NCBI GenBank assembly: GCA_964291285.2
Contig: OZ219787.1
Span: forward strand, 2,048,001 to 2,112,000
From: Alphaproteobacteria bacterium
Lineage (GTDB): Bacteria; Pseudomonadota; Alphaproteobacteria; Bin95
DNA: 64,000 nt
Reading direction: 5' to 3'
Shown here: positions 27,621 to 64,000 of the stretch, piece by piece
Layout of the letters: every line of letters starts with the position of its first letter
Numbering within the stretch: the first letter of the stretch is position 1
Notes under the pieces: model-generated
What the model was told of the DNA's origin: nothing
The model's input: only the letters and a program-made list of their open reading frames with translations
Database searches by the model: none
Made by a program: the position numbers and the translations under genes

Positions 27621-29290
27621 CTGCCGAACCTCCACCAGCCCCGCGGATCACGCGACCGCCGCCAGCGCCCGCTCCTTCCGGATCACATACGGGTTCGGGT
27701 CCGCCAGCTCCGCCACGCCAGGCAGCATCCAGTGACGCGCATGCCTCAGACGGAGCACGTCCCGGGGCATGTCCTTCGGCGACGCGATGACGAACTGGTC
27801 GTCCGGACCCATCGACAGGATTTCGTCGGCCGGAACCAGCTGTTCCTTCACCACCGACAGCGACTCCTGGATCGACCCCTGCCCCTCGGGCAGCAATGTC
27901 GCTTCCCTGACCTGCCCCGACCGACTCTCGCTCCGGTTCTCGAAGGTCGCGGCGCCGATCGCCTTGGACAGAACCTCCGCCCCCTCCACATCCATCCGCG
28001 GCCATCCGAGAATCTGGACCACTTCCGCGAGGTGCATCAGCGTCTTCCTGGAATCCCCTCCCCAGGTCTCGTCCAGCGCGGACACCGACTGCGCGAAGGT
28101 CCAGAAATGGACGCCCTTGCCCGCAGCCAGGTTGTAGCCGTCCATCACGGGCTGCAGATGACCCAGCGCCGGCAGCTCGTCGATGACGACGAGCATCTCG
28201 CGCTGCATCGCCCGCCGGGACGCCACCGCATAGGGGATCGAGATCCACAGTCGGAGCCAGCCCTTCACCAGGCCTGTCATCTCGTCCGGCACGACCACGA
28301 ACACGTCCATGTCGCCATTCGCCAGGTCCAGCGGATCGAAACTCGACGAGCTCGTATGCGCCGCGATCTCCGGATAGTTCAGGAACGAGAGCTGGTTGGA
28401 CACCGTGGTGAAGTTCGAGCCGCCTTCCTCCTTGCCCACGCGCCTGGACCGCTCCATCGCAAGATGCATCAGCCCCCCGCAGAACGGGTCGGTCGCTTCC
28501 ACCCGCGCGAAAAACTCGTCCCGCGCATCGTTGCCGAGCGACAGCAGCTCGTAGAGCGTCTTCAGGTTCCGTCGGTCCGGCGGCATCTTGAACCTGACCC
28601 AGGACAGGTAGCCGTTTATCAGCGAGCGCGCGGACTCGTAGAAATGCTTGGAGTTGCCGCCGTCGCTCTTCGGCCGTTCCATCAGCGCCTCGACCAGGAC
28701 GCCGATATCGCGGACCGCCTCGTCACCCTCGCGGATGAAATCCAGCGGGTTGTAGGTATCGCTCTTCCAGACCGGCAGATGCAGCACGGCGCCCTCGCCG
28801 AAATCCGCCTCTCCGCCCTCGAGGCCGCGATGCCGTGCCACCATGCCGAACGGATCGAGCAGGATCGGTCGGCGCCCGAGCGAACGCCGGCGGCGGGCGA
28901 CGATCGGGAACAGCTCGCCCCTCGGATCGATCACCACCGTGGAGCCCGGCCACCCACGCTCCTGCGGAGACAGGTAGTTCAACGCGATCGTCGCGCCCTT
29001 GCCGGTCCTGGGCGGCGCGAACGTCATCGCCGAGCCCTCCAGCGGATAGGCAATCAGCCCGTCACGGCTCTGTCCGAGCATCACCCCCTGGTTCTTCGCC
29101 AGACCCCGAAGCCAGCGCCGCTCCAGGAACTTCGCCTTTCCGAAAAGCTCGGACTCCGCCTTCTTCCGCCCCCTTTCACCGGCAATGCGCTTCACCGTCG
29201 TCCGGGCTGCCTGTCCCAGTATGTTCACCACGACGAAGGCCCCAGCCAAGGGGAGCAGATGGACACAAACCATCTCCCAGCTTTCTCCCA

Positions 29291-30742
29291 GATCGTGCCC
29301 CCGCGGGTGGTGTAAGAGCCTGGCGTCCGTAGCGGTGTCCGGCGGGTAGGGCCGGAACGCTCAGGCTGCCACGGCGGGCAACTTGACGGTTGTATTGTCG
29401 CTCACGGGAGCGATGGATTCCAGCGTCATGTATCTGGCTCTCTGGACTGCCCATTCATCGTTCTGCTCGAGCAGGATTGCGCCGATCAGCCGGGTGATGG
29501 CGTCCTCGTTGGGGAAGATGCCGACGGTGTTTGTGCGCCGCTTGATCTCGCCGTGGAGGCGTTCGAGCGGGTTTGTCGAGTGCAGCTTGGCGCGGTGCGC
29601 GGCCGGGAAGGTCATGTAGGCGAGAACATCGTGCTCGGCCTCGTCCATGATGGCGGCGAGCTTTGGCGCCTTGGGCCTGAGCTGGTCGGCGACCTGGCGC
29701 CACTGGGCGGAGGCGCTGTCTGCATCCTCCTGGGCGAAGGCGGTAGTGACGAAGGCGGAGACGACGCGCCGGCCCTGCTTGCCGGCATGGGCGAGCAGGT
29801 TGCGCATGAAGTGGACGCGGCATCTCTGCCAGGTGGCGCCGAAGATGCGGGTGGCGGCGGCCTTCAGGCCCTTGTGGTCGTCGGAGATCACCAGCTTGAC
29901 GCCGCGCAGGCCGCGGCGGGCGAGCGAGCGCAGGAAGTCGGTCCAGAAGGTCTCGGCCTCGGACGCGCCGATCGCCATGCCGAGCACCTCGCGCCGGCCC
30001 TGATCGTTGACCGCCACCGCGATGGTGACCGCGACCGAGACGACGCGCCCGGCCTCGCGCATCTTCACATAGGTCGCGTCAAGCCAGAGATACGGCCAGT
30101 CGCCCTCCAGCGGCCGGTCGAGGAAGTCGCGGATCTTGTCGTCGATCTCGCCGCACAGCCGCGACACCTGGCTCTTGGAGATGCCCGACATGCCCATCGC
30201 CTGCACCAGGTCGTCCACCGAGCGGGTCGATACGCCCTTGATGTAGGCCTCCTGGATCACCGCCGTCAGCGCCTTCTCCGCCATCCGCCGCGGTTCAAGG
30301 AAGCCCGGGAAGTAGCTCCCCTTGCGCAGCTTCGGGATCTTCAGTTCGACCGTGCCGGCCCGCGTCTCCCAGACCCGGTCCCGGTAGCCGTTGCGCTGCG
30401 TGATCCGGTCCGGCGAGCGCTCGCCGTGCGCGGCGCCCGCAAGGCCCTCAACCTCAAGCGCCATCAGACGCGCGGCCGTGAACCCGATCATCTCGCGAAG
30501 CAGGTCGGCGTCGGAACTCTTCTCCAACAGCGCCCGCAGGGTCATCATGTCGGTGGTGGTCATCGTGGTACTCCTCCGGTCAGGTGGACTGTGACAGCCC
30601 AACCCTAACCGGCACCGCGATGGCCTCCGCTGTGGGTAAGTGGCCCGCCGCCGCCTGACTCCAGACGGTCGCGGCGGCGGGCCACTTACCCACAGCTACC
30701 ACCGGAAGCTTCAGCTCCTACACCACCCCTGGGGACACGACC
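29291..30742 (-). mobile_element. IS256-family element
   Basis: Imperfect 24-bp IRs GATCGTGCCCC..GGTGGTGTA / TACACCACC..GGACACGACC; 8-bp duplication TTCTCCCA. Confidence 0.95.
29361..30563 (-). CDS. IS256-family transposase
   Basis: [32 protein letters not shown], and STNPLER motifs. Confidence 0.95.
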
Positions 30743-31137
30743 TTCTCCCAGCCTGTCCCAGGCCGCACCGCGAAGCCGGAGGAGTCCTCCCCATATCCGG
30801 GACTCGATCATGTACACCCACGCACCGCCCGACATGACGAACGCCATGCCGAGCCCCAGCCCGAAACTCCGCACCTCGCCGGCACGCGACCGCCCGCAGA
30901 AGCACCAGGCCACCAGCCCGCCAACAAGCACCGCCAGAAGCAGTCTCGCAGCCATGTCCGCTTCCGGCCTTCCCGCAACCAGCCAGACCCCAACGCCAAG
31001 ACCGAGCGCCGTAAAGACGCCCGCCACACCGAAGCCCTTCCACCTGTCGCCCATCAGACGCTCCTTTCAACCCGGTTCCGTTCATCGCCCGGAAGCGCGA
31101 CAATCGGGCCGATCCGCCCGATTCTGGACTAAGCCGC

Positions 31138-33345
31138 CTAGCCCCCGACCGGCCCGCCTGCACCGGGCCTGTTGCGCACACCCGCGCCGAAACGGCTCGG
31201 CGCGACCCCGCCGAGCCGTCCCGTGCTGCCGGTCGCCACCCCGATCATCCGATCGGCCTCGCTCATGCCCGAGGCGCGGCCGCCTATCCAATTCATGACC
31301 GCGTCCGGCAGCATCTCGATCAGCTTCAATGATGCGTTCAGCAGCCCGTAGGCGATCATCACGTAGAGCGCGACAAACACCGCATACTGGATAATTCCGG
31401 GTCCGATCTCGCCGGCGCTCTCCCGCATCTGCGTCAGCCAGATCGCATTGAAGAGCTCGATGACGACGGTGAAGACGAGATAACCGACGATCAGTCCGAA
31501 GATCATCAGCGGCGGCCTCAGAACCACGCCTGCCAGCGTCACCAGGCCCCCGACCGTCGAATTCGTGGTCAGGCCGCTCCCCTCCGTTCGCGCCGTCTGG
31601 GCCGCAAGCCAGACGGTCATGGCGATAAATGCCTCGACCACGGCCAGGATCCAGACCAGCAGTCCGAACAGGAACCGGATGAAGGGCAGCGCCGGTACCA
31701 GATAGGCCAGCACCGCCCCGCCGATCAGAAGGGCCATCAGCACCATCGTCACGATGCCGTCGATCACCGGCCAGGTCGCCTCGAAGAGATCGGCCTTCAG
31801 CGAAAACCCGAGAGCCTGCACGTCGCCCAGGTTCGACACCGCCGCAACACTCATCAACGTGCCCGACGTCACCAGAACGCCGGTCACGAGGTTGTGCCCG
31901 ACCGCCGCCAATTCGGAGATCGGATTGTCCCCCTCCACGTCGAGCACATCCTCGAAGGAGAACATCACCGTGTAGAACAGCTGGCTCAGCATGCTGCCCG
32001 CGCCGCCACCCGATGCCCCGGCCTGCGGCGCCCGGCTGCCGAGCGCGCTTACCGGCGTGCCCACCGCCGTCGATATATCCTCAGAAATCTGGAGGAGGGC
32101 CTTGAAGCTCTTCCTGTCCCGATCCTTCAGGGCGAGCATCGGCGGCGTGACCTCCGGGGCGCTCACCACGGCCCAGTTGAACTCTCCGATCCGTTCCGCC
32201 ACCCGGAAGAACAGGCTGCCCGCCGTCGTCCAGCTGCCGTCCTCCGCTTGCTCGGCCGCCAGCTCCTCCCGCGTCTGCGAATTCTGAGCCGCGCCGGCCC
32301 TTTCCACTGCCGCATCCACCACCCGGGCATAAGCTTCCACCGCGCCCGCAACCGCCGTGCTCACGGCCGACCAGTCCATCGGATCGCCAAACCGCTGCCC
32401 GTCCTCGTAAGGCTCCGCAATCCGCTTCGCGACCGCCACCAGCACATTGCGGGCCTGCTCCATGCCCTCAAGATGCGCCCTCGCCACGTCGCCCCGCGGC
32501 CCCTCGCGGTCCAGCCCCGCGAATCTCACCTCTCCGCAATGGCTCCTAATGTCGTAGCCCCTGGTCCCCTGCGCCACCTCATAGCGCCAGACCTGCCCGC
32601 CCCTCGCCGTCGTCTTCACGGGCCCTGTCGCCAGCCGTTTCCCCGCCAGCTCGCGGCAGACCTCCACGACCAGGAAGTCGACCATCATCACCTCCCGGCC
32701 CTCGGCCGACGGCCTGGGCGCCGACACCCCCGAACTTCCCAGAAGCGACGCCGAAAACGGCTTCCACACCGATTGCGCGAAATCCCCTCCCACCCCGGCC
32801 AGGTCCAGGACGATGTGCTGCCCGCCGGAAGGCCCGCCCGGAAGGGGGACCAGAAGGGCGATCGACGCCACGATGCGCACGATCTCCCAGCCGCCGAAAC
32901 CGAGGCGGCCGGTCCGGCCGGTATCCATGACGCCGGCGGCCGTGTGATAGATCAGGAGGACGCCTACGAAGACCAGCACGCCGGCATTGAAATAGCCGAC
33001 CATCTCTCCCAGCGCCGCATAGGCGGCATTGCCGCCGCCGTCGCCCCCTCGCAGCAGGTCGAACAGGTCGCGGCTCGCCTCGTCCACGATATCGAACAGG
33101 TCGGACTCGAACCCCTGGCCCCACGCAAGACCCGTGCCCAGCGCGGTTCCAAGACCCACCAGCGCCAGCCCGGCCACGAGCCGGGCCGCACCGCGCCTCG
33201 ACCGGAACCGGTCGATGCCAAGACGGCTCCCTTCCGGTAGGCGCCACAATGCGCCGACCGAGTCCCCGATCCGTCCCGCCGACGCCCTCATCTGACCGAG
33301 CGACCGCCCGAACTCCGGAAGGAAGAGCAGCCGCAGCAGCCCCAT
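31138..33345 (-). CDS. dotA: DotA/TraY-family polytopic membrane protein
   Basis: FNAGVL..W..VRIV..IALLVPLP.G, GSWTTAGS.F, LAYLVPALPFIRF, VEAFIA, LRPPLMIFGL, and LPDAVMNWIG. Confidence 0.88.
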   Translation of the reverse strand: MGLLRLLFLPEFGRSLGQMRASAGRIGDSVGALWRLPEGSRLGIDRFRSRRGAARLVAGLALVGLGTALGTGLAWGQGFESDLFDIVDEASRDLFDLLRGGDGGGNAAYAALGEMVGYFNAGVLVFVGVLLIYHTAAGVMDTGRTGRLGFGGWEIVRIVASIALLVPLPGGPSGGQHIVLDLAGVGGDFAQSVWKPFSASLLGSSGVSAPRPSAEGREVMMVDFLVVEVCRELAGKRLATGPVKTTARGGQVWRYEVAQGTRGYDIRSHCGEVRFAGLDREGPRGDVARAHLEGMEQARNVLVAVAKRIAEPYEDGQRFGDPMDWSAVSTAVAGAVEAYARVVDAAVERAGAAQNSQTREELAAEQAEDGSWTTAGSLFFRVAERIGEFNWAVVSAPEVTPPMLALKDRDRKSFKALLQISEDISTAVGTPVSALGSRAPQAGASGGGAGSMLSQLFYTVMFSFEDVLDVEGDNPISELAAVGHNLVTGVLVTSGTLMSVAAVSNLGDVQALGFSLKADLFEATWPVIDGIVTMVLMALLIGGAVLAYLVPALPFIRFLFGLLVWILAVVEAFIAMTVWLAAQTARTEGSGLTTNSTVGGLVTLAGVVLRPPLMIFGLIVGYLVFTVVIELFNAIWLTQMRESAGEIGPGIIQYAVFVALYVMIAYGLLNASLKLIEMLPDAVMNWIGGRASGMSEADRMIGVATGSTGRLGGVAPSRFGAGVRNRPGAGGPVGG

Positions 33346-34481
33346 CAGCGCTGCACCTCGAGCCAGTCAGCGAGGCCCGGCAGCCGGCGCATTTCCTCGG
33401 CCGCCGCCCCGAGCCGCGCGGCCTCCATCGCGCCGCGCCGCTCGTCCATCTGGTAGCGCTCCCAGGCGAGCATCAGCGACGCCGCCTGCAGGAGCGTCAG
33501 CTCACGCAGCAGATTGTCCCGGTTCATCGACTGCAGGCCGACCGCCCAGGCCGGGTTCTCGAAGCGCCGCGAGGTGAGGACCTCCAGCAGTTCATGCCGG
33601 CTGACCCGGCCGCCGCTGCCCGCCGCTCCCGGCGCCAAGGCCGAAGCCCAGCCGCCAAGGTCCACAGCCGGCTCGCGTGCGCCGCGCGCCCGGGCAAACC
33701 AGTCCGCGGCAAGAGCCGCGCGCGCATCCGCCGAACGCGCCAGCATCGCGAGCTCGCGGTCCTGGTCGGTATCGACGGCGCGCAACGGAAACCGGTCCCA
33801 CGCGATCGGGGCCGCCAGGTTCCGTCCGAGCTCCCCGGCCGCCAGGCGCTGCCTGTCATCGCCGAACGTGTCCACGTCGAACAGCGAGCCCGCCTTGAGG
33901 TCCGCGTCGTGCCTCGACGGGTCCCCACTGCAGACACCCGCGCCGGCCTGCAGACGGCTCTTGCTGCAATGCTCGCCCGTCCAGACCCCGAAGCGCCGCC
34001 TGGTGTCCGCCGCCAATCCCGCCTGGTCGCCGACTACGGCCGCATCGCCACCAATCCGTCCGGTCTCCCGGGTCGCGGCGCGTTCGCCCGCCTCGGCGCC
34101 CCCGGCGCGGCTGGCCGCCAGACCCGCCATGCCCGTCACCGTCCGGCAACCGGACGAGGTCGGACGATGCTGCAGCTTGGACTGCGTCTCGGCTTCGTCG
34201 CGCGCGATCTCCGCCAGCAGCTTCGTCTGCGCATCGAGTGCGTCGGTCACCGACTTCGCGCCCTCGGCGATATACCCGGAGAGCTGCGCCGTCTGGAGCT
34301 CCAGCGTCCGGACAATGGAGCTCTCCATCCGGTCGATGCGCGCATTCACGTTGCTGATCACCGTTCGCGCCGCCGATCGCGACGCACTCCAGGCGCAACC
34401 GCAGCAACCCGCATGCGCTGCCGGCGCCGCAAGCACGATGACCAGAACCGCCAGGACGGCTGCCCCCGCTCCTCGAATCAC
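33345..34481 (-). CDS. IcmX/TraW-like periplasmic T4BSS protein
   Basis: Signal peptide and coiled coil; C-terminal RRFENPAW..LLRELT..LAWERYQMDER; adjacent to dotA; GTG start overlaps the upstream stop. Confidence 0.6.
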   Translation of the reverse strand: MIRGAGAAVLAVLVIVLAAPAAHAGCCGCAWSASRSAARTVISNVNARIDRMESSIVRTLELQTAQLSGYIAEGAKSVTDALDAQTKLLAEIARDEAETQSKLQHRPTSSGCRTVTGMAGLAASRAGGAEAGERAATRETGRIGGDAAVVGDQAGLAADTRRRFGVWTGEHCSKSRLQAGAGVCSGDPSRHDADLKAGSLFDVDTFGDDRQRLAAGELGRNLAAPIAWDRFPLRAVDTDQDRELAMLARSADARAALAADWFARARGAREPAVDLGGWASALAPGAAGSGGRVSRHELLEVLTSRRFENPAWAVGLQSMNRDNLLRELTLLQAASLMLAWERYQMDERRGAMEAARLGAAAEEMRRLPGLADWLEVQR

Positions 34482-34957
34482 GAGTCCTGCCCTCCCACGA
34501 TTCCCCGAAACACATCCCCGGCGTCCGGATCCACCCCCGGAAGCCGGCGCGTCCTCGGCCTCGCATCGACATCGAGACCGGGAAGCACGCCCAGCTCGCG
34601 ATCGAGCCCGTAGGTCGCCCGGTCGAACGGCCGCGTGACCCTCTGCCGCCATATGTTCCTCGCCGCATCGCAAAGCTGCCCGAACAGGTCCGGAAGCGAC
34701 GGCAGCCGCACCAGCGCGTCCCATGTCGGAAAGTTCAGCAGGTCGCAGGAGAGGTCGTAGATCGAGTCCGGATCGCCGATTCCCTCCTCCTGGTGGCGAA
34801 TGAGGACCTGGTCGCGCTCCACGCCGCGCACGGCCGAATCCTCGAGCGCCTTCGCGACCGCAGGATCGCAGTCCGCCGCTTCTTTCGACTGCCCGGCGGC
34901 CGGGGCCGCCGCCAGCAGCATCGCAAACAGGCCCGCCGCCGCCGTCAGCCTCCTCAC
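34478..34957 (-). CDS. Exported Cys-containing hypothetical protein
   Basis: Signal peptide and three Cys; GTGA overlaps on both sides. Confidence 0.7.
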   Translation of the reverse strand: MRRLTAAAGLFAMLLAAAPAAGQSKEAADCDPAVAKALEDSAVRGVERDQVLIRHQEEGIGDPDSIYDLSCDLLNFPTWDALVRLPSLPDLFGQLCDAARNIWRQRVTRPFDRATYGLDRELGVLPGLDVDARPRTRRLPGVDPDAGDVFRGIVGGQDS

Positions 34958-51238: not shown

Positions 51239-51240
51239 CC

Positions 51241-54586: not shown

Positions 54587-54732
54587 TGAGAACGATGCGG
54601 CGCCGGCCCCGTTTGCTAGGTGGCAACGACCGGCGCCGCACCCCCCGAGCCATGCAAGGCACGGCCCGTATGCGCGGTATCGTAGGCGTTCGGGCGTGGG
54701 TCCACCCCGTTCTCATCGGTCTTTGCGATGAG
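54587..54732 (+). ncRNA. Putative structured RNA leader (multi-stem junction)
   Basis: Pairings 54587-94/54708-15, 54596-606/54630-40 and 54644-50/54688-94; TAGACT -10-like box at 54573. Confidence 0.5.
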
Positions 54733-55162
54733 GAACGCCGCCCGCCTGTTCACCTGCGCTTCGTGCCATCGCCAGGTTGTGCTGTGCCGGCGGTGCGACC
54801 ACGGCAACATCTACTGCTCGCGTCCGTGCAGCGGCCGGGCGCGGCGGCGCTCGCTGCGCCTTGCCGGGCGTCGCTACCAGAACAGCCGGCGGGGCCGTCA
54901 CAAGCATGCCGAACGCCAGCGGCGCTACCGCGAGCGCCGTCGCGTCCGTGCGCCTGAGGAGGGGCGCCGTGCGCAGAAAGTGACGCATCACCCTTTGACC
55001 CGTTCACCGCGCCGTCCTGTTGTGGCGGGCATGCCGGCGGGGCGCTCGGGAAGGAGGCCCTTCGGACCCGACCGTCCCGCCGGAGTGTTCCGCTGCGATC
55101 ACTGCGGGCGGTTCTGCGCCCGGGCGGTCTATCCGGGCCTGCGCCCGGCGCGAAGGGAGTGA
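54728..55162 (+). CDS. Zn-finger / Arg-rich protein upstream of istA
   Basis: CASC..CRRCDHGNIYCSRPC, Arg-rich helix, and C-terminal CDHCGRFC; the stop lies 1 nt before the istA ATG. Confidence 0.78.
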   Translation: MRNAARLFTCASCHRQVVLCRRCDHGNIYCSRPCSGRARRRSLRLAGRRYQNSRRGRHKHAERQRRYRERRRVRAPEEGRRAQKVTHHPLTRSPRRPVVAGMPAGRSGRRPFGPDRPAGVFRCDHCGRFCARAVYPGLRPARRE

Positions 55163-55163
55163 G

Positions 55164-56669
55164 ATGGCGATCGACCAGCAGACCCGGGCCGAGATCCTGC
55201 GGCTGTATTTTGCCGAGAAGTGGCGGATCGGCACGATCGCGCGCCAGCTCGGCGTCCACCACGGCACGGTCGAGCGCGCGGTGGCGGCCGCCGGGGCGCC
55301 CACGCCTGAGAAGCGGCGCAGATCTTCGATGATCGATCCGTTCCTGCCCTTCGTCCGCCAGACCCTGGCGGTCTGGCCGAAGTTGCCCTCCAGCCGGCTC
55401 TACCGGATGGCGGTCGAGCGCGGTTACCGGGGGTGCGAGAGCCACTTCCGGCGCATGATCGCGCCCGAGCGTCCGCGGCCGGTGGCCGAGGCCTATCTGC
55501 GCCTCAAGGCCCTGCCCGGCGAGCAGGCCCAGGTCGACTGGGCCCACTTCGGCAAGGTGAGGATCGGGCGTGCGGAGCGCCCGCTGATGGCCTTCGTGAT
55601 GGTGCTCGGCCACTCGCGCCGCCTCTTCCTGCGCTTCTACCTCAACGCCGGGATGGACAACTTCCTGCGCGGCCATGTCGAGGCCTTCGAGGCTTGGCAG
55701 GGCGTGCCCCGCGAGCTCTGGTACGACAATCTGAAGAGCGTCGTGCTGGAGCGGCGCGGCGACGCCATCCGCTTCAATCCCCGGCTTCTCGACTTCGCAG
55801 GCGCCTACCGCTTCCTGCCGAAGCCGGTCGCGGTCGCCCGAGGCAACGAGAAGGGCCGCGTCGAGCGGGCCATACGCTATGTGCGCGACAGCTTCTTCGC
55901 CGCCCGCGCCTGGCGTGACCTCGACGATCTCAACGCCCAGGCCCGGGAGTGGTGCGAGGGCGTCGCCGCCGACCGCCCCTGGCCGGACGACCGCTCCCTC
56001 ACCGTGAGCGAGGCCTTCGAGCGCGAGCGCGGCTCCCTGATGGCGCTGCCCGACGACCGTCCCCCCGTCGACGAGAGGGTCGAGGTCAGGATCGCCAAGA
56101 CCCCCTATGCCAGGTTCGACCTCAATGACTACAGCGTCCCGCATACCCATGTCCGGCGCACCCTCACCGTGGCCGCGACGCTGGAAGAGGTGCGCATCCT
56201 CGACGGCATGGAGGTCATCGCCCGCCATCCGCGCAGCTTCGACAAGGCGGCCCGCATCGAGAACCCCGAACACATTGAGGAGCTGGTCAGGCGCAAGCGT
56301 CACGCCCGCAGCCTGCGCGGGCAGAGCCGGCTGCTCCAGGCCGCGCCCAACAGCGAGCGCCTGATCGCCGAGGCCGCCCCCCGCGGCGCTTATATCGGCG
56401 CCACCGTCGCCGCCCTGCTGCGCCTGCTCGACCAATACGGCGCCGCCGAGCTCGAAGCCGCCATCGACGAGGCCCTCGAACGCGGCGTCCCCCATCCCAA
56501 TGCCGTGCGCCTCAGCCTCACACGGCGGCGCGAACTGCAGGACAGGCCGCCGCCGATCCCCATCGACCTGCCCAGGGACCCGCGCGTGCGCGACATCGCC
56601 GTGCGCGATCACGATCTCGGCGGATACGACGGGCTGGCCGGCTACCATGAAAAGGACAGCGAAGAATGA
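55164..56669 (+). CDS. istA: IS21 transposase IstA
   Basis: HTH, PGEQAQVDWAHFG, YDNLKSVV, EKGRVERAIRY, and NDYSVP motifs. Confidence 0.95.
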   Translation: MAIDQQTRAEILRLYFAEKWRIGTIARQLGVHHGTVERAVAAAGAPTPEKRRRSSMIDPFLPFVRQTLAVWPKLPSSRLYRMAVERGYRGCESHFRRMIAPERPRPVAEAYLRLKALPGEQAQVDWAHFGKVRIGRAERPLMAFVMVLGHSRRLFLRFYLNAGMDNFLRGHVEAFEAWQGVPRELWYDNLKSVVLERRGDAIRFNPRLLDFAGAYRFLPKPVAVARGNEKGRVERAIRYVRDSFFAARAWRDLDDLNAQAREWCEGVAADRPWPDDRSLTVSEAFERERGSLMALPDDRPPVDERVEVRIAKTPYARFDLNDYSVPHTHVRRTLTVAATLEEVRILDGMEVIARHPRSFDKAARIENPEHIEELVRRKRHARSLRGQSRLLQAAPNSERLIAEAAPRGAYIGATVAALLRLLDQYGAAELEAAIDEALERGVPHPNAVRLSLTRRRELQDRPPPIPIDLPRDPRVRDIAVRDHDLGGYDGLAGYHEKDSEE

Positions 56670-57460
56670 CCGACACCCTCATGAACCGCGCCCGCGCGCT
56701 GGGCCTGCACGGCCTCCTCGCCCATTGGGGCGAAGTCGCGGAGCGCGACTGGCTCGCCTCCCTGATCGCGTGGGAAGAAGATGAGAAGCGCGCCCGAAGC
56801 CTCAAACGCCGCCTCGCCGACGCCCGCCTCGGACAGTTCAAGCCGCTCGCAGACTTCGACTGGGACTGGCCAAGGCGCTGCGACCGCATGGCCGTCGAGG
56901 ACCTCATGACCCTCGACTTCCTCAAGGAGGCCGCAAACCTCGTACTGGTCGGACCCAACGGCGTCGGAAAGTCCACCATCGCCGCCAATATCGCCCACCG
57001 CGCCGTCCTCGAAGGCCACATCGTGCGCTTCGCAACCGCCGCCAGCCTGCTCGGCGAACTCGCCGCCATCGACTCCGACACCCTGCTCCAGCGCAGGCTG
57101 CGCTTCTACGCCCGACAGCACCTGCTGGTCATCGACGAAGTCGGATATCTCTCCTACTCCAACCGCCACGCCGACCTGCTGTTCAACATCGTCTCAAGCC
57201 GCAGCCAGCAGAACTCAACCATAATCACCACGAACCGCCCCTTCGCCGAGTGGAGCGAGGCCTTCCCAAACGCCGCCTGCCTGGTCGCCCTCGTCGACCG
57301 GCTCGTCCACAACGCCGAGATCGTCGCCATCGACGGCGACTCCTGGCGCCGCAAGGAAGCCGAGGAACGTCAGAAGCAGCGCAGCGCCGAACGCCGCCGC
57401 CGGCGCGGACCGAAAGCCGGGCAAAGCACTGGAAAGGCGAACCCGGTCCCGTCGCCATAG
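56666..57460 (+). CDS. istB: IS21 AAA+ helper IstB
   Basis: FDWDWP, GPNGVGKST, LLVIDEVGY, TTNRPF.EW, DRLVH, and GDSWR motifs. Confidence 0.95.
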   Translation: MTDTLMNRARALGLHGLLAHWGEVAERDWLASLIAWEEDEKRARSLKRRLADARLGQFKPLADFDWDWPRRCDRMAVEDLMTLDFLKEAANLVLVGPNGVGKSTIAANIAHRAVLEGHIVRFATAASLLGELAAIDSDTLLQRRLRFYARQHLLVIDEVGYLSYSNRHADLLFNIVSSRSQQNSTIITTNRPFAEWSEAFPNAACLVALVDRLVHNAEIVAIDGDSWRRKEAEERQKQRSAERRRRRGPKAGQSTGKANPVPSP

Positions 57461-57462
57461 CC

Positions 57463-58335
57463 ATGCATCCCTCCCGCCCCCGCGAGCGGCGGGTGCGGGC
57501 CGAGAGCCTGCGGGGCTATCCCCTCGAACCCGTCGCCCGAGCCCTCGGCTACCGCAGCGATCCCGACAATGCCGTGCGCTGGAGACGGCCAGGATCGGTC
57601 CTCTCCATCAACCGCTTCATGTTCTACGACCATCTGCGCGCAGAGGAGGGAGCCGGGGCTATCGAACTGGCGGTCCATGCGCTCGGATGCACCCCGCCGG
57701 ACGCCATCGACTTCCTCGCCGAACTGTCCGACCTCTCAATGCCCCCAGGCGGCCGCCGGCAGGCGCCGGCCAAGGACCCCCGCTGGCCCAACCTCCGGCG
57801 ATACCTCGTCGAGCGGCGCGGCCTCGCGGACGCGCTCGTCACCCTGTGCCGCGACCTCGGCCTGGTCCATGCCGACCCTCACGGCAACCCCGTGTTCGTC
57901 CGCCGAAACGCCGCCGGCGAGGCTACCGGCATCGAAACCGTCACCGCTGACCGCAAAACGACCGCGGGCGGCGGCTTCTGGATGTCCTGGGAGACCGAAT
58001 GGCCACACGCCGTCATCCTGGCCGGCAACGCCCTCGACGCACTCTCCATCCTCTCCCTCCACCTCGGCCCGGTAAAACGCACCGAATGCGCCACCGTCTC
58101 CACCGGCGCCGTCGCCACCAAAGTCCCCAAATGGATCGAGGCATGGAACCCGCGCCTCATCTTCTGTGCATACGACGCCACCACAAACGGCGATCACGCC
58201 GCAAGGCGCCTCGCCCGCAACGACACCAGAATCGTCCGGCTGCGACCCGCACTCGACAACCGGGACTGGAACGACATGCTCATCCGCGACCGAGCCGGCG
58301 AACCAATCGAAACCGATGACCAACAGATCAACTGA
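57463..58335 (+). CDS. DUF3991/Toprim-like (primase-related) passenger protein
   Basis: PLEPVARALGY, GAGAIELAVH, YLVERRGL, N.VF, ALDALS, CAYDA..GD.AA, and RP..DWNDML. Confidence 0.75.
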   Translation: MHPSRPRERRVRAESLRGYPLEPVARALGYRSDPDNAVRWRRPGSVLSINRFMFYDHLRAEEGAGAIELAVHALGCTPPDAIDFLAELSDLSMPPGGRRQAPAKDPRWPNLRRYLVERRGLADALVTLCRDLGLVHADPHGNPVFVRRNAAGEATGIETVTADRKTTAGGGFWMSWETEWPHAVILAGNALDALSILSLHLGPVKRTECATVSTGAVATKVPKWIEAWNPRLIFCAYDATTNGDHAARRLARNDTRIVRLRPALDNRDWNDMLIRDRAGEPIETDDQQIN

Positions 58336-58588
58336 AAAACCGCAACCGGCCGAAAAATGTCAGCGAATAGGCGCGCTCTGTAACCGTCGCTAACAACCAG
58401 CTCCTTCTGCGCCGCCCGCAGCCTCCGGAGCGCTTCCACGTCAGCCTTCAGCTCCTGCAGCACCAGGCGCGCTTCCGCATAGGCAGCAACCCATTCCGAC
58501 GCCGCCGCCGGCGTTTCCTCCGCGCCCACGGCGATCGGCCCCGCAGCCGGGACCAGCGCCAGCGCAACGAAAGCCGCCTTCACCCGCA

Positions 58589-59581
58589 TCAGCATCCGAC
58601 GCAGTTCCCCACGGTCAGCGTGCCGATGAAGCCCGTGGCCGACTCGATCCGGCCCGCGATCACGGCATTCGCGTCCACGTTCCCCGTCGCCGTGACATTC
58701 GTTGCCGTCACGCCCTGGCGGACATTCGCGCTCTGCGCGTCCAGCCGCGTCGTCACGTCCACCTCGTTCGCCACGACCTCGCCCGAGAACTCGGCATCGC
58801 CCGTAAAGGTCACGTTCCCGGGCGCCACGAACGCGCCCTCGACCCGGACCGCGCGTCCGACCGCCAGCTCCCCGTCGATCCTGAAATCCCCGCCGACATC
58901 CACATCGGCAGAGACCTCCAGGTTCTCCGCCTCAAGCCTGCCGACGCCCTGGATGTCGTTCCCGTTCAGGTCGAGGTCCGTCTCCATCCGCGCCGCGTTC
59001 GGGCAGCCCGGACGCTCGCGCCTGAACAGCCAGTCGCCGCAGACGCTCGACCTGTCGAACTGCTGGAACACCGCCAGCGCGTTCTCCTTCGGATCGCCGC
59101 CGGCGTCGGCCTGGAACGCCGTCACGTCCTCATTGATCGTCGGCCCCCGGAGAACGCCGTTCTCGTCCACCACCCCCAGCGCCTGTGTGCCCCGCGCCTC
59201 GAACAGACCCGAGCCCGGCCACCACTCGTCGAAGTCCGGCACCACCTGCATGCTCACCACGCTCAGCCGGTCTCCGCTCCGCAGCACCCAGACCTTGTGC
59301 CCACGCTTCATCGGGTCGCCCGCACCGAAGCCGTCCGGCAGCAGGTCCTGCCCCTCGAGCTCCGTCATCGTGACCTCTCTCGACGCGGGATTGCCGGGCT
59401 CGACGAGGTCCCCGTAGTTGGCATGAACGTATTTCTCGACCTGGCCCGCCAGCACCACCAGCTTCCGCGCGGAGCTCACCTCGATCGAGGCCTGAAGGCG
59501 CTCGTCCACCCACTCCAGCACCTCCGCCCCGACCAGCATCAGAACCGGCACCGACAGAACGAGCCCGACGACCCAACCCAT
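58589..59581 (-). CDS. pilV: PilV-like minor pilin/adhesin (Shufflon_N-like) 1
   Basis: N-terminal TM, KYVHANY..L, LLPDGF, WLFRRERPG.P..ARMETDLDLNGNDI, beta-repeat tail ending CVGC. Confidence 0.75.
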   Translation of the reverse strand: MGWVVGLVLSVPVLMLVGAEVLEWVDERLQASIEVSSARKLVVLAGQVEKYVHANYGDLVEPGNPASREVTMTELEGQDLLPDGFGAGDPMKRGHKVWVLRSGDRLSVVSMQVVPDFDEWWPGSGLFEARGTQALGVVDENGVLRGPTINEDVTAFQADAGGDPKENALAVFQQFDRSSVCGDWLFRRERPGCPNAARMETDLDLNGNDIQGVGRLEAENLEVSADVDVGGDFRIDGELAVGRAVRVEGAFVAPGNVTFTGDAEFSGEVVANEVDVTTRLDAQSANVRQGVTATNVTATGNVDANAVIAGRIESATGFIGTLTVGNCVGC

Positions 59582-59584
59582 CGC

Positions 59585-60676
59585 TCAGGGCCCCAGATTG
59601 GGCGGCTGACAGCCGCTGCAGCTGTTCACGACAAGGCTCCCCACCTGCGCGCCGGCGGCGATGGCCTCCGCGCCGGCGTCCACGGTTCCGCTCGCCGCAC
59701 GCACCGTGGCGATTGCCGACAGCTCCCCGCCGATCTCCATGTCCGCCGTGAGCGCCACCGTTTGCGCGCCGACCTCGCCACGCGACCTCAGCGATCTGCC
59801 GACCGCAAACTCGCCCGGAATCCGCCAGGACGTCTGCGACCCGCCGCCGAATGCGAAGTTGCGGTCCGCCTCCACCGTCGTCGCCGCCTGGATCGCAAGG
59901 CTCCCGGCCGGCCTTATCAGCACGTCTCCCGCTGCATCCACGGTCCCTGCAACAGCAACGCTCCCGCGATCCGCGCTCGCGCTCTCGCCGGCCACAGTCC
60001 CGGCCCGCAGGATGTTCGTCCCCGCCTCGAACCGTATCTCCTGCTCCATGGACGACAGCTCCGGACGCCCACCCACCGGGCGCCGATAGACCCGCTCCAC
60101 CGCATGGCCGATGCCGAAGTCCGCGGTCGCGAACATCGACCCTTCCGGCAAGCCGCCCAGCACCGCCACGACATCCGCGAGCCGGCCATGCATCGGGGTC
60201 GCGTCCCCACCGACGAACCCGATATTGTCGAGCCCTCCCATCACCGCGCCCTTCCGCAAATCCGGAAACCGCGCCTCGACTCCGCTTCCCGTGAGGCTGC
60301 AGACCGCGAGCGGAATCCCGTCTGCCATCACCGCCCCGTAACGCGCCTCCACCAGCCCGGCCTGGTCCGCCTCACGGAGACCTGCGGGCAGGAATGGCGT
60401 GAACGGCGGCGCCGGAGGAACAGGAAGCGGCGGCTGCTTCAACTGAGCGACCGTCACCCTCGCCGGCGCCGTGATCGGCCCCGGAGGCACGGCTCCGGGC
60501 GCCGTCACCATGCCGGCCTGAACCGCCCGGTGCATGGCTGTGCAGGTCATGCCCCAGACACGGCCCCGCTCGCGGTCCATCTCCGCCGCAACCAGCGACT
60601 GGTGGTCCTCGCCCCAGATCGCCATCGCGTAGGCCGCCAGCGCCCCGATCACGATTGCCGCAACGACAGGACCCAC
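59585..60676 (-). CDS. PilV-like minor pilin/adhesin 2
   Basis: N-terminal TM, FLPAGL, VYRRPVGGRPELSSME, beta-repeat tail with CSGC. Confidence 0.65.
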   Translation of the reverse strand: MGPVVAAIVIGALAAYAMAIWGEDHQSLVAAEMDRERGRVWGMTCTAMHRAVQAGMVTAPGAVPPGPITAPARVTVAQLKQPPLPVPPAPPFTPFLPAGLREADQAGLVEARYGAVMADGIPLAVCSLTGSGVEARFPDLRKGAVMGGLDNIGFVGGDATPMHGRLADVVAVLGGLPEGSMFATADFGIGHAVERVYRRPVGGRPELSSMEQEIRFEAGTNILRAGTVAGESASADRGSVAVAGTVDAAGDVLIRPAGSLAIQAATTVEADRNFAFGGGSQTSWRIPGEFAVGRSLRSRGEVGAQTVALTADMEIGGELSAIATVRAASGTVDAGAEAIAAGAQVGSLVVNSCSGCQPPNLGP

Positions 60677-60727: not shown

Positions 60728-61246
60728 CTATCTGAACGTGAAGGTGAGAAAGTTCGCGCCGTCGCCCTCCGCGCAGGCCGTCGACACCCCGGAGACCGTC
60801 AACTCCGCCTCTTCGTCCTCGTTGACTTCGTCCGGCGCCTCGTCGTCGACCTCGATGTTCACGACGCCGCGCCCGCCGACCAGCTTGACCGCGGCGCGGG
60901 CGCACTGGTCGTCGTCCATGTCCGCGATCGTCAGCGCCATGCGCTCGTTGTCGCCCAGAATCGTGATCTCGCCGCCATACGGGCTCACGATCCCGTCGCC
61001 GTCCGCGTTCAACGCGCTCGACGGCACCTTGTCGTGCTTTATCAGCGTCGGTACGAGATTGGTGTCATCCCCGAGGTCGGCCTGGTTCGCATAGACCACC
61101 TGCACATTGGCACGCAGCCGCACGATCAGCGTGTCCATCTGGCCTTCCTTGGTGTCGGCCACGCCCTCCTCGAAGGCGCCCAGCATGTCCGCGACCAACA
61201 GCAGCCCCATGGCAGCCGCCAGCACATATCCAACAATCGAAGCCAT
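60728..61246 (-). CDS. pilS: PilS-like type IVb major pilin
   Basis: Hydrophobic N-terminal helix, LI...VPS, SPYGGEITI, two-Cys D-region (QCAR..TAC), N.LTFTF end; follows pilR. Confidence 0.8.
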   Translation of the reverse strand: MASIVGYVLAAAMGLLLVADMLGAFEEGVADTKEGQMDTLIVRLRANVQVVYANQADLGDDTNLVPTLIKHDKVPSSALNADGDGIVSPYGGEITILGDNERMALTIADMDDDQCARAAVKLVGGRGVVNIEVDDEAPDEVNEDEEAELTVSGVSTACAEGDGANFLTFTFR

Positions 61247-61252: not shown

Positions 61253-62371
61253 CTACTCCCCGATCGTCTTCAGATGGATCGTTGACTGGAACATCGGCGA
61301 CAGCACGAGCGTCGCCAGCATCACGGAGAAGGTGAGCAGAAGAATGCTCAAACCCGCCGTTGCGAACTTCACCATTTCCTCGGAATCCCGGACCCAGCGT
61401 TCCAGGAACGCCGACATCTCCTCGTGCCAGCCCGCCCTGCCGTCGAACGCAGCGCCCACCGCCACCAGCTCGTAATCCGGAAAGCCCGTCCCGGCCGCCT
61501 GCAGCGCCCGGCCAATGCCCATGCCGCCGCGGACCATCCGCTCCTGGATCGCCTCCATCCGCGAACGCACATAGGGCGACGCCCGCTCGCACAGCCGCTC
61601 CCAGGTCGCATCGTTCAACTCGACGCCGAGCTTCATCAGCTCGACCACCATCATCATGAAGGCCGCGCCGCTCACGACCCGGTAGAGCGAGAACGGAACG
61701 TAGTCGTCAAGAAACCGCCGGCCGGCGCCGGTCCAGCGCAGCACCGCCAGCCAGCCCCCGATCACCAGACCCAGGAACCCCGCCCCGATCATGAACTCAT
61801 ACGCGCGCACCGTGGTCGCCAGCCAGTAACCGAGCTGGGCGCCGTTCGACCATTTCTCCGGCTCGCTCATCGCCAGGAACTTCGGCAGCAGCTCGCCCCC
61901 GGCCCACCACAGCCCCGCCAGCGCCATCAGCACCACAGCACCCGGCAACGCCAGAGCGCCCCACAGCGCCCGCGTCATGGTCCGCGTGACCTCCGCAACC
62001 CTGGCCGCCGCACCGACCACCCCGGGCGCGTTGCCCTCGGCCAGGGCGCCCAGAATCATCGCTTCCGACGCCGGCACCCAGCGCGACACCTCCTCGGCAA
62101 ACGCCCTGTTGCCGTCCGCATAGGCGAACTGCCAGCGCCGCAGCATGAACAGCCGCGCCTTGTCCTTCGGGGCCGCCGCGATCGCCGTCTCGATCGCCTC
62201 GCGCATGCTGAACCCGGACTCCAGCGTTCGCCTCATCGTGTTCCACACCACGACCCGCCGCCTCGTGCTGCCGGCCCGCAACCCCACGAGCCCCACAACC
62301 GCCCGCTCGAGGAGCCTCTCGCCCCTCGACCGCGCCGTGCCCGGGCGCCCGATCGCATCCAGCAGGCTCAC
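61253..62371 (-). CDS. pilR: PilR / GspF-family pilus platform protein
   Basis: WVPASE.M, PFSLYR..SG..F, and IGRAL..AG.GFPD.E; three TM segments. Confidence 0.88.
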   Translation of the reverse strand: MSLLDAIGRPGTARSRGERLLERAVVGLVGLRAGSTRRRVVVWNTMRRTLESGFSMREAIETAIAAAPKDKARLFMLRRWQFAYADGNRAFAEEVSRWVPASEAMILGALAEGNAPGVVGAAARVAEVTRTMTRALWGALALPGAVVLMALAGLWWAGGELLPKFLAMSEPEKWSNGAQLGYWLATTVRAYEFMIGAGFLGLVIGGWLAVLRWTGAGRRFLDDYVPFSLYRVVSGAAFMMMVVELMKLGVELNDATWERLCERASPYVRSRMEAIQERMVRGGMGIGRALQAAGTGFPDYELVAVGAAFDGRAGWHEEMSAFLERWVRDSEEMVKFATAGLSILLLTFSVMLATLVLSPMFQSTIHLKTIGE

Positions 62372-64000
62372 GACACCAGCTCCGCACTGTCCTGGATCAC
62401 CGACAACGCCGGCCGCGCCCCGCCGAACACCTCCCTGGCCTCAGCGATCTGCGCGCTCTTCCCGAGAGCATCGAACGGATCGACCAGGCCGTCGCCGACC
62501 GCCCGCCATATCTTCGTGCCCAGCGTCACGCCGCCCATCTCGCTCAGCCAGTAATTCCAGGCCCCGAGAGCGTCCCCCTCCCTCACGAACTTCAGATACC
62601 CGTCGTCCGGAACGATCCATTCGGCGAACGCCAGCCGGTTCGAGTAACCCGCCCACGCCGTCCTCGCGAGCTCGGTATGGCGCTCCCTGAGACAGGTCTC
62701 GCACCCTTCCGGATTGCGGTACCGCACCTCATCGTCGAGCATCGCTTCCAGCTCCGCCGGCAGCCTCCTGCCATCCGCGGGCCTCTCCAGGCAGCACTCC
62801 GGACAGACGATCGACATGAGCCTCTGGTTCATGAACAGCCGGATATTCCCCGGCTTCACCAGCTGCGCGACCTCCACCCCCATGTCCCGGAGCCGGAACG
62901 GTATGCCGTTCGCATTGTGGGCATGCACCGTCGTGTAGATCTGGTGGCCGCTGTCGACGAACTGCAGAACCTGCTTCGCCGTCATCAGGTCCCTGATCTC
63001 TCCGATGCCGCCCACTTGCGGATGAATCCGCACGAAATGCATCAGCACATCACCGAAGATCGCCTCGCGGTCATCGCCCACGCCCCCGCTCGGCACCTGG
63101 ATCTGTATCGCCTTCGGAATCCGGTTCTCCACCGGATCGTCCGCCGTCACCATGTTCAGCGTGTAGTTGTGCTCCTTCATCTGCGTCATCATGTTGACGG
63201 TGTTCGTCGTCGATTTTCCCTCGCCGGTCGGCCCCGCGATGATGACGCCGCCATATTTCGACATCCTGATTTCCCGGAAGATCTCGACGATCTCCCCGCC
63301 GAAGCCGAGCTTCTCCAGCGTCATGTCCTCCGTGATCCGGTTCTTCGGGAATATCCGCACCACCAGATGGTCGCCGGCGATATTCGGGCCGCTCTCGCAG
63401 CGCAGCGCCGCGATCTTCTCCGGCATGCGCAGCTCGTCCCTGCCGATCCCCCAGCCCTGGCGTTCGTTCTTCACGAACGAAACGAGGCGGCTGCCCTCCG
63501 CCTTGCAATAGAACAGGTGGTGGATCATCCACTCGCCTTCCGCCTTGGTGAGCGGCGTCCCCAGCGGAAGTTTCCGGTTGTTCACCTGCACCAGGACCCG
63601 GCAGTCCGACTCCCCGTTCTCGAAGAACACATCGTCCGCCTCGGCCTCCACCGCCTCGTTCAGAATGTCGTAGAGCTTCTGGACCAGGCCCGGGTCGGCC
63701 ATCCGCGACGCCTGCGAGCGCTCTTCCCCCCGCCGGGCCGCCGCAATGTCTTCGAGCGATCCCTTCTTCTCGCGCAGACCCCCCGGAACGAACCCCGTGT
63801 CGCGCAGGTCGCGCAGCACGTCCCGCATATGGCCGTCCGCCGTATAGCCCTCCGCGATCATCGTCCGGCCGTCCGCCCACACGACGCACTTCGACCGGAA
63901 ATCCGCATCCATCCGGCCCCAGTGGATGATCCCGCGATCGTCCACCCAGGGCGGGCGCTCCTTCAGTCCGAGCAGCACCAGGAACCGGGTAAGCCCGTCC
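62368..64000 (-). CDS. pilQ: PilQ / GspE-PilB-family assembly ATPase (5' end probably just outside the window)
   Basis: GPTGEGKSTT, DDPVE, IGEIRD, SGHQIYTTVHA, QRL..CPEC..GC..C; the frame stays open to the window edge. Confidence 0.9.
   Translation of the reverse strand, partial: DGLTRFLVLLGLKERPPWVDDRGIIHWGRMDADFRSKCVVWADGRTMIAEGYTADGHMRDVLRDLRDTGFVPGGLREKKGSLEDIAAARRGEERSQASRMADPGLVQKLYDILNEAVEAEADDVFFENGESDCRVLVQVNNRKLPLGTPLTKAEGEWMIHHLFYCKAEGSRLVSFVKNERQGWGIGRDELRMPEKIAALRCESGPNIAGDHLVVRIFPKNRITEDMTLEKLGFGGEIVEIFREIRMSKYGGVIIAGPTGEGKSTTNTVNMMTQMKEHNYTLNMVTADDPVENRIPKAIQIQVPSGGVGDDREAIFGDVLMHFVRIHPQVGGIGEIRDLMTAKQVLQFVDSGHQIYTTVHAHNANGIPFRLRDMGVEVAQLVKPGNIRLFMNQRLMSIVCPECCLERPADGRRLPAELEAMLDDEVRYRNPEGCETCLRERHTELARTAWAGYSNRLAFAEWIVPDDGYLKFVREGDALGAWNYWLSEMGGVTLGTKIWRAVGDGLVDPFDALGKSAQIAEAREVFGGARPALSVIQDSAELVS

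Follow-up and report, generated by a model that had tools for sequence, protein, structure and literature searches.

What kind of system is encoded by the minus-strand genes that run from 27648 to the end of a 64,000-nucleotide stretch of an alphaproteobacterial genome, and could it still work? The stretch (C3:2048001-2112000, called the window below, with positions counted from its first base) belongs to a genome (G000) of 6.13 Mb, five contigs and 68% G+C. An earlier note, made from the letters of the sequence, had read these genes as a hybrid type IVB secretion system (T4BSS) and type IVb pilus operon of a distinct, streamlined lineage, either an integrative and conjugative element (ICE) or a host-contact secretion device. 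Gene content and order make it most plausible that the cluster is one half of an integrated conjugative element of the MPF-I (mating-pair formation type I; IncI/R64, 'type IVB') kind, namely the half for mating-pair formation and the thin pilus. This copy is likely to be a decayed, non-autonomous remnant of such an element.

Genes were identified by Pfam and NCBIfam scans of the open reading frames (ORFs) and by comparison with the proteins of plasmid R64 (IncI1; NC_005014), both with phmmer and with family profiles (hmmbuild/hmmsearch). In the direction of transcription the order is PilQ-PilR-PilS-PilV-PilV, a small gene, variable ORFs, two lipoproteins, a TcpQ-domain lipoprotein, DotD-DotC-DotB, a 90-aa ORF, a TcpQ/PilL-like protein, a Dsb protein, DotI-DotH-DotG, TraQ/R-like proteins, TraU/IcmB, a 159-aa ORF, a TraW/IcmX-like protein, DotA and the coupling protein. 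This order is colinear with R64. The gene list of the earlier note was essentially right by the family matches, by the R64 matches and by the order, and both a type IVB channel and a type IVb pilus are present; the 'hybrid' arrangement is nothing special, being the standard IncI layout and not a new fusion. The channel and lipoprotein genes are listed below in the direction of transcription with E values of the matches; percentages are identities, G001, G002 and G005 are genomes with related clusters, and P1-P3 are paralogous clusters described further below.

52324..54315, minus strand: variable ORFs of 167, 138 and 342 aa, the first two without counterpart in relatives
50258..52287, minus strand: two paralogous putative lipoproteins, 326 and 348 aa (lipobox in each; no family match)
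49299..50306, minus strand: TcpQ-domain lipoprotein, 335 aa (PF10671 3.2e-9; lipobox; kept in every compared copy)
48781..49542, minus strand: DotD/TraH lipoprotein, true start probably near 49300 (PF16816 7.9e-25; NF033882 3.8e-19; R64 TraH 5e-5 by profile; lipobox)
47918..48784, minus strand: DotC/TraI lipoprotein family (T4SS_TraI/DotC PF16932 1.9e-58; R64 TraI 4.4e-30)
46087..47271, minus strand: DotB/TraJ ATPase (TIGR02524 5.5e-74; TIGR02525 3.2e-66; R64 TraJ 1.6e-46)
45796..46068, minus strand: 90-aa ORF at the IcmT/TraK position, identity putative (83-89% in G001, G002)
45218..45781, minus strand: TcpQ/PilL-like protein (PF10671 2.2e-9; R64 PilL 7.8e-4 by profile)
43635..45242, minus strand: variable ORFs of 211 and 284 aa (weak partial matches in relatives; no Pfam or NCBIfam match)
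42652..43638, minus strand: DsbG/TrbB-like thiol-disulfide isomerase (DsbG NF008657 1.1e-6, C-terminus; R64 TrbB 1.1e-5 by profile)
41939..42655, minus strand: two small family-less ORFs of 122 and 114 aa (orthologues in G001, G002; no Pfam match)
41298..41951, minus strand: DotI/TraM (PF11393 8.1e-38; R64 TraM 8.6e-17; 94% to the 217-aa G001 orthologue)
40369..41301, minus strand: DotH/TraN (PF12293 1.4e-40; R64 TraN 2.2e-24)
39197..40492, minus strand: DotG/TraO (T4SS_IcmE_DotG 2.3e-14; TrbI 2.2e-5; R64 TraO 1.7e-11)
38649..39197, minus strand: TraQ/IcmC-like protein (conj_TraQ_IncI1 2e-7 with a longer ORF; by profile R64 TraR 1e-5, TraQ 0.008)
38255..38683, minus strand: TraR/IcmD-like small membrane protein, assigned by position (weak DUF6750; R64 TraR 0.004 by profile)
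35253..38240, minus strand: TraU/IcmB(DotO)-type ATPase, 995 aa (R64 TraU 1.8e-95 by phmmer, 1.9e-126 by profile)
34478..34957, minus strand: family-less 159-aa ORF at the R64 traV position (kept in G001, G002, G005 and P1-P3; no Pfam match)
33345..34724, minus strand: TraW/IcmX-like protein (conj_TraW 2.6e-5; R64 TraW 3.7e-10 by profile; 79% to the G001 and G002 orthologues)
31138..33345, minus strand: DotA/TraY (TIGR04346 7.5e-69; R64 TraY 1.8e-14 by phmmer, 3e-29 by profile)

The assignment of icmB holds through R64 TraU, but the protein gave no Pfam or NCBIfam match at the thresholds used and no PDB sequence match at E ≤ 0.001. The name icmT had been given to the 90-aa ORF from its size and position alone; it had no significant match to R64 TraK by profile and no meaningful Pfam match, and the name is putative. 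The two proteins described as surface lipoproteins do carry lipoboxes; they are 74% identical to their G002 counterparts and 50-53% to G001, where a 375-aa orthologue aligns with both ORFs, the second at 29%. The observation that dotL, dotM, dotN, icmS/W, sog primase, a relaxase and an integrase are not visible in the window was borne out, with no matches to any of them in the scans.

The thin-pilus genes occupy the end of the window:

62368..64000, minus strand: PilQ assembly ATPase, full ORF of 544 aa, gene running to 64002, 2 bases outside the window (T2SSE 2.9e-44; R64 PilQ 2.4e-32)
61253..62371, minus strand: PilR platform membrane protein (R64 PilR 1.6e-26 by phmmer, 7.3e-32 by profile)
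60728..61246, minus strand: PilS type IVb major pilin (PF08805 1.7e-8; Bundlin 1.7e-5; R64 PilS 2.7e-8)
58589..60676, minus strand: two tandem PilV-like minor pilin/adhesin genes, 330 and 363 aa (Shufflon_N 4.8e-6 and 0.0068; R64 PilV 2.2e-13 and 2.6e-7 by profile)

The colinear transfer block extends past 64000 to ~71245 in window numbering, where a remnant of PilN and six further genes are found. These genes, upstream of pilQ, encode proteins of 338 and 560 aa, a membrane protein resembling fatty-acid desaturases, a GNAT acetyltransferase and proteins of 690 and 434 aa. In G001, the closest relative, the pilus operon opens with a 607-aa type IVb secretin of the PilN family (TIGR02520, 1.2e-38), and the remnant beside the window corresponds to its residues 464-564 at 91% identity. 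The thin-pilus set PilN, PilQ, PilR, PilS and PilV is present, its own PilN being truncated and identified through G001. Scans of all cluster ORFs gave no match to A24 peptidase, SLT or recombinase families, and none to R64 PilT, PilU or Rci.

The desaturase-like protein (PF00487, 4e-14) and the acetyltransferase stand within the pilus operon at 66321-67918 (L001:4321-5918). They are 57-69% identical to their counterparts in three paralogous clusters, which exceeds the values for their neighbours, and are absent from G001, G002 and G005. The pair may modify the pilin or a lipid.

Three genes of the cluster are interrupted by insertion sequences (ISs). The first is the gene for the type IV coupling protein (T4CP), the last in the direction of transcription:

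30743..31054, minus strand: T4CP 5' part, ~104 residues with two predicted membrane helices (aligned with G001 residues 1-105, 59%)
29291..30742, minus strand: IS256-family IS, 1452 bp (transposase 29361-30602; Transposase_mut 1.6e-121; transpos_IS256)
27648..29290, minus strand: T4CP 3' part, VirD4/TraG-type, about residues 102-642 (PF02534 2.9e-39; TraG-D_C; TrwB_AAD_bind)

The gene had been called virD4, and the protein is indeed of the VirD4/TraG type, but 27648-29273 is only its 3' part, the IS at 29291-30742 lying inside the gene. The 649-aa T4CP of G001 aligns in two pieces, residues 1-105 at 31054-30740 and residues 102-642 at 29291-27669; full-length relatives in a large protein collection are 633-667 aa long. 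Hydrophobic segments lie at residues 7-25 and 32-50 of the 5' piece. The IS is flanked by an 8-bp direct repeat, TTCTCCCA (target duplication), and its length together with the duplication fits an in-frame simple insertion. It has 26 matches in the genome (≥300 bp, ≥90% identity, itself included) and is absent from G001, G002 and G005. By sequence, the coupling protein is of the VirD4/TraG type, not of the DotL/TrbC type: its Pfam and NCBIfam matches were confined to VirD4/TraG families, its PDB sequence matches were Cag5 and TrwB only, and comparison with R64 TrbC (E = 5.6) and with a Roseomonas IcmO/DotL (E = 0.028) revealed no similarity. Identity to any plasmid-borne T4CP was at most ~30%, the best being sphingomonad VirD4/TraG proteins.

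The second insertion splits a small conserved gene between the pilus and channel genes:

58396..58595, minus strand: small conserved gene, 5' part (G001 residues 26-77 at 58520-58368)
54347..58395, plus strand: IS21-family element, 4049 bp (istA 55020-56669, istB 56666-57460, extra ORF 57463-58335)
54209..54346, minus strand: small conserved gene, 3' part (113 aa in G001; residues 58-112 at 54373-54209)

The stretch previously described as membrane proteins is largely this element (54347-58395), with its plus-strand istA and istB (transpos_IS21 2.3e-72; IS21_help_AAA 1.4e-61). The GC skew is -0.14 to -0.28 over the minus-strand cluster, the 54-56 kb bin being the exception. The element is flanked by the 5-bp repeat ACCAG and is present in the genome in 18 full-length and 4 interrupted copies, and the residues of the small-gene ORF past the junction match IS copies. 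Read-derived contigs were compared with 54001-64000. Both junctions were crossed by contigs of runs X1 and X2 and the right one by X3, and the read depth of the element was ~20x that of its flanks. In run X4, labelled sponge metagenome, a ~92%-identical relative of the pilus region joins 54341 to 58396; this join omits exactly 4054 bp and therefore represents an empty IS21 site. The element is unusually long, with a third plus-strand ORF of 290 aa (weak DUF3991 match) and ~670 bp holding two small minus-strand ORFs.

The third insertion cuts pilN just outside the window:

71247-73671 in window numbering (L001:9247-11671): IS1595-family element, 2425 bp, with inverted repeats

PilN residues 5-465 were found on another contig, at C2:1047685-1049046, adjoining a second, left-truncated copy of the same element. 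Metabolic genes lie upstream of this piece, which makes pilN the outermost gene of the conjugative element. Four copies of the IS1595-family element (2.3-2.4 kb, 99.9-100% identical) occur in the genome, two of them without the first 100 bp; as passenger the element carries a gene for a fusion of an N6/N4 DNA methylase with an HNH nuclease. On the window side the left flank has the 8 bp CAGTAATG, which equal the right flank of the C2 copy; this is the signature of a single insertion with later recombination among IS copies or of an assembly mis-join, and the two are not told apart by it. A mis-join would mean that the flanks of the repeat were joined to the wrong copies and that the conjugative element is contiguous, with simple insertions only. 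The shared 8 bp are what a single simple insertion would give, and a near-identical repeat present in 4 places could mislead an assembly. We nevertheless regard the artefact as unlikely: the C2 copy lacks the first 100 bp including the left inverted repeat, so that the copies are not interchangeable, and metabolic genes next to pilN are as expected at the outer border of the element. Even if the joins were wrong, pilN, the T4CP gene and the small gene would still be interrupted and the relaxase would still be absent.

The DNA-processing end of the element is missing here. Homology with G001 ends at ~27519, about 100 nt inside an Mrr-like gene, which in G001 is followed directly by a 996-aa TrwC+AAA_30 relaxase-helicase (MobF 5.4e-66, NCBIfam). 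The best matches to this relaxase in the window's genome are 55-56% identical and lie on other contigs. The earlier note had suggested looking for a relaxase, an integrase and att sites beyond 64 kb; none of the 21 TrwC-domain places of the genome falls within C3 2.0-2.2 Mb, no PF03432 (MOBP/Q) relaxase was found anywhere in the genome, and no integrase was found in the cluster or flanking it. It had also held that its reading would fail if the proteins nested within a described MPF-I element of the same gene order and the missing genes lay just outside. The MPF-I gene order is indeed there and the missing pilus genes do lie just outside, but a relaxase and an integrase do not. Both ends of the cluster are destroyed by IS elements, the relaxase/maintenance end being replaced by IS debris beside core genes, and no relaxase in or near the window and no origin of transfer (oriT) is left locally. 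With three IS insertions breaking this copy and no relaxase, it is not the 'streamlined' working system proposed earlier.

Relaxases are found with the related clusters. Colinear clusters were recovered from other alphaproteobacterial genomes, a check that had been proposed, for example from G001, G047, G231 and G196, and three further ones are present in the window's own genome: P1 (C2:~259-296k), P2 (C2:~463-526k) and P3 (C5:~17-89k). The P1-P3 proteins are 33-61% identical to those of the window, and the P1-P3 DNAs are 98-99% identical to each other. They appear as a second kind of MPF-I element of roughly 70 kb, with a partial fourth copy of the relaxase end at C3:~1894-1918k; the shared ends of the P copies could define the mobile unit. 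P1 carries a 1518-aa TrwC relaxase 2 kb from its T4CP, together with a single-stranded-DNA-binding protein (SSB) and a NikA-like gene. Between the element end and the T4CP, P3 encodes TrwC proteins of 418 and 2115 aa, an SSB, two Toprim/primase-like proteins, ParA, serine recombinases and a protein with a DnaA_N domain. The distance from the T4CP to a TrwC domain past it is 2-26 kb in all four G014/G002 copies, in two of three in G047, in the single G231 copy, in the first G001 copy and in P1-P3. Of the features of an ICE, a relaxase is present in relatives and paralogues and absent from the window's copy. Further signs of mobility are the 1-4 copies per genome, the occurrence in part of the genus and in none of the sampled species of its two sister genera (see below) and the presence of three 98-99% identical P copies on two contigs.

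The P-type elements raise the question of whether the window's cluster works in trans, its channel, pilus genes or oriT being used with the T4CP and relaxase of the three P-type elements and the region being mobilisable or aiding mating. All ORFs save the three interrupted genes are open, the IS insertions are recent, and the same genome holds two or three P-type elements that seem complete, with a T4CP and a TrwC relaxase of 2115 aa. Exchange of subunits is doubtful, however, at 33-61% identity, the secretin is split, the T4CP lacks its membrane anchor and neither oriT nor relaxase is left locally; we consider such a role improbable, less probable than the mis-join discussed above.

We return to the reading of the cluster as part of a conjugative element and to the lineage to which it belongs. 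Within the same family, 37 genomes were compared (the order level gave the same 37). Of the 16 other species of the genus, 9 have TraU at ≥51% identity and a tenth has it at 34% only, with up to three copies per genome in these species and 1-4 chromosomal copies per genome across the genus; no TraU match was obtained in 20 species of the two other genera of the family. In one species of the genus TraU itself is split by ~4.35 kb. Of 400 sampled genomes from the rest of the class, 29 had a TraU match at E ≤ 1e-30, and only three of these (G047, G231, G196) reached 59-63%; in these three the same T4CP (58-60%) and PilQ (47-48%) are also present and colinear. The window-type T4CP was missing from two tested genomes with a 40%-type TraU. 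The pilus half is close to G001 only (PilQ, PilR, PilS and the second PilV 77-82%; other pilus-side genes 42-81%) and the channel half is about equally close to G001, G002 and G005 (mostly 57-94%), from which we infer that pilus and channel modules recombine.

The earlier suggestion of a distinct lineage is supported by its distance from plasmid systems and by a TraU tree. When 72,556 PLSDB plasmids were searched by tblastn, TraU was at most 38% identical to any of the 3782 matching plasmids, in line with the low T4CP values given above; the best matches (35-38%), some annotated IcmB/DotO, were on alphaproteobacterial plasmids such as those of Methylorubrum, Roseomonas, Rhizobium, Bosea and Komagataeibacter. 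R64 TraU is 27% identical. More than 584 TraU relatives were found (one genome per species), and the best 80 were all titled metagenome-assembled genomes. The proposed IcmB phylogeny was carried out with FastTree on 80 TraU sequences, 72 of the best 80 loci (8 with internal stops or <900 aa were left out) and 8 references, rooted on R64 TraU. The window type and the P type fall into one clade of 31 tips with support 1.0, made up of uncultured alphaproteobacterial genomes; the plasmid proteins of Roseomonas and Bosea stand outside it, as does a large group labelled Micavibrio. In the species-level collection searched, this clade counts at least 31 members, all titled metagenome-assembled genomes and mostly labelled Alphaproteobacteria or Rhodospirillales. 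Small genomes with the label Micavibrio or Bdellovibrionales commonly carry TraU/IcmB relatives at 38-42%, which group apart from the clade of the window.

We tentatively propose, at somewhat short of even confidence, that these copies form an undescribed clade of chromosomal, multi-copy MPF-I elements, known to date almost exclusively from uncultured Alphaproteobacteria, in which the ancestral DotL/DotM-type coupling module and MOBP relaxase were replaced by a VirD4/TraG-type T4CP and a TrwC (MOBF) relaxase, with the IncI thin pilus kept. If so, MPF-I ICEs would have been unsampled, not 'extremely rare', and the substrate-recruitment module of type IVB systems would be exchangeable with that of type IVA. 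The occurrence of a type IVB channel together with a VirD4-type T4CP and MOBF bears on the modularity of substrate recruitment in type IV secretion systems. The locus itself is ordinary decay, and its clade is the interesting part.

In an intact member, PilN, PilQ, PilR, PilS and the two PilV proteins would produce a thin pilus that keeps mating pairs stable, and DotC, DotD, DotH, DotG, DotI, DotA, TraU/IcmB and DotB would build an envelope-spanning channel. The membrane-anchored VirD4/TraG-type T4CP would pass the DNA strand bound by the TrwC (MOBF) relaxase to this channel. In the window's copy, decay would then have come from the IS256-family insertion, which splits the T4CP gene after its first two membrane helices, from the IS21-family element, which splits the small conserved gene, and from the IS1595-family element, which cuts the secretin gene. 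The inactivation appears recent, since the IS copies match their siblings at 99.9-100% identity and the remaining cluster ORFs have stayed open. The copy illustrates rapid IS-driven decay in a genome with an extreme IS load.

Several points weigh against this account. Apart from the interrupted genes all cluster ORFs are open, and components like the channel could still be produced; the high identity of the IS copies belongs on this side as well. The split of pilN across contigs could be an assembly error at the 2.4-kb repeat. The association with TrwC is not universal: the nearest one is at 78 kb for the second G001 copy and at ~43 kb in G196, and one G047 copy has only a TrwC fragment nearby. 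No integrase or att site has been defined for the lineage; the G002 copy adjoins two tyrosine recombinases, which could belong to independent elements of a kind very abundant in the window's genome. The TraU tree included no sequences from Legionella, Coxiella or Xanthomonas and had R64 as its only root. Finally, the gene identities, the three insertions and the lack of a nearby relaxase are observations, while the conjugative function and its loss are deduced from the sequence.

A host-contact or interbacterial effector-secretion T4BSS of the Dot/Icm kind, the other option of the earlier note, is very improbable, for although homologues of the DotA, B, C, D, G, H, I and IcmB core are present, some relatives' copies have no relaxase close by and a related element occurs in a sponge metagenome, the cluster ORFs gave no DotL/DotM/DotN/IcmS/IcmW, DotU/IcmF or IcmQ/R family match, the T4CP is of the conjugative VirD4/TraG type and broken in this copy, the gene order is that of a conjugative plasmid, and most copies show linkage to TrwC relaxases, SSB and primase-like genes, with ParA in a paralogue.

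The remainder of the window lies to the left of the cluster. Positions 1-19500 carry core and metabolic genes of ordinary kinds, among them those for a Der-type double GTPase and a BamB-like protein, and between core genes a Fic/DOC-family gene with Fic_N (12461-13597) coincides with a local dip in G+C (0.636). A heap of IS copies and fragments follows at 19620-26155 (IS5-like, IS1595, IS4-like, an IS66 C-terminus and a GntR fragment), most of which recur elsewhere in the genome. Between this debris and the T4CP remnant, a unique segment at 26180-27490 matched nothing else, either in the genome or in the related loci that were compared; it holds a 290-aa plus-strand ORF (26234-27106) without family match. 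A tRNA scan detected none in the window, in loci L001-L003 or in 20 kb to either side. The load of mobile elements in the genome is extreme: beside the 21 TrwC-domain places and ~26 IS256 matches there are several T4CPs of other types, and dozens of tandem tyrosine-recombinase pairs or trios are spread across all five contigs.

How does the cluster compare with known systems? The typing rule given in a passage of PMC3158045 asks for at least four of TraI, K, L, M, N, P, Q, R, W and Y. TraI, TraM, TraN, TraW and TraY are clear here, TraQ and TraR are weak, and TraK, TraL and TraP were not detected in the cluster in the Pfam, NCBIfam and R64 comparisons. The MPF-I marker, a TraU/IcmB-type ATPase of the VirB4 family, is also present. 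The cluster has neither a coupling protein of the MPF-I clade (TrbC/DotL-type), which a passage of PMC3548315 describes as nearly monophyletic, nor a MOBP (NikB-type) relaxase. The thin pilus is treated in a passage of the same paper as an accessory of some MPF-I systems (PMC3548315).

Plasmid R64 is alike in having a pilus operon followed by traH-I-J(-K), traM-N-O-(P)-Q-R, U, W and Y, and homologues of PilL (PilL-like), PilN, Q, R, S, V, TraH, I, J, M, N, O, Q/R, U, W, Y and TrbB are shared. Compared with R64, TrbA/DotM, TrbC/DotL, the Sog primase, the nuclease, NikA/NikB (MOBP), PilT, PilU and the shufflon recombinase were not found in the cluster; the T4CP is of the VirD4/TraG type, the relaxase of the relatives is MOBF, two tandem pilV genes stand in place of the shufflon, and the location is chromosomal and not on a plasmid. 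The Legionella and Coxiella Dot/Icm systems share the DotA, B, C, D, G, H, I and IcmB/DotO families, as judged through the NCBIfam and Pfam models derived from them. Searches of the cluster, to which they were confined, gave no family match to DotL, DotM, DotN, IcmS, IcmW, DotU/IcmF or IcmQ/R on any ORF; unlike Dot/Icm, a thin pilus is present here and conjugative relaxases are linked in the relatives. IncM plasmid pCTX-M3, compared by description, likewise has an MPF-I conjugation system but is a gammaproteobacterial plasmid without a pil operon.

Nearer at hand are the dot/icm-like systems of alphaproteobacterial plasmids, on Roseomonas mucosa pSKB0092-2 and on linear plasmids of Rhizobiaceae, which are of the MPF-I type, presumed conjugative, with IcmB 34-38% identical to that of the window. 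The dot/icm genes of the linear plasmids are described in a 2025 preprint, whose authors could not identify a relaxase (10.1101/2025.05.29.656789). A Bosea plasmid was considered as a colinear relative and rejected, not being colinear. The Roseomonas plasmid differs in encoding IcmO/DotL and is typed MOBP. Chromosomal MPF-I systems are described as few, essentially those of Legionella and Coxiella, in a passage of PMC3158045, and MPF-I as 'extremely rare among ICE', with none found, in a passage of PMC5587801. Our literature search turned up no description of a lineage joining MPF-I, a VirD4-type T4CP and MOBF, which is not proof of its non-existence. Set beside these systems, MPF-I with a VirD4-type T4CP and a MOBF relaxase in chromosomes is a new combination within the known MPF-I systems.

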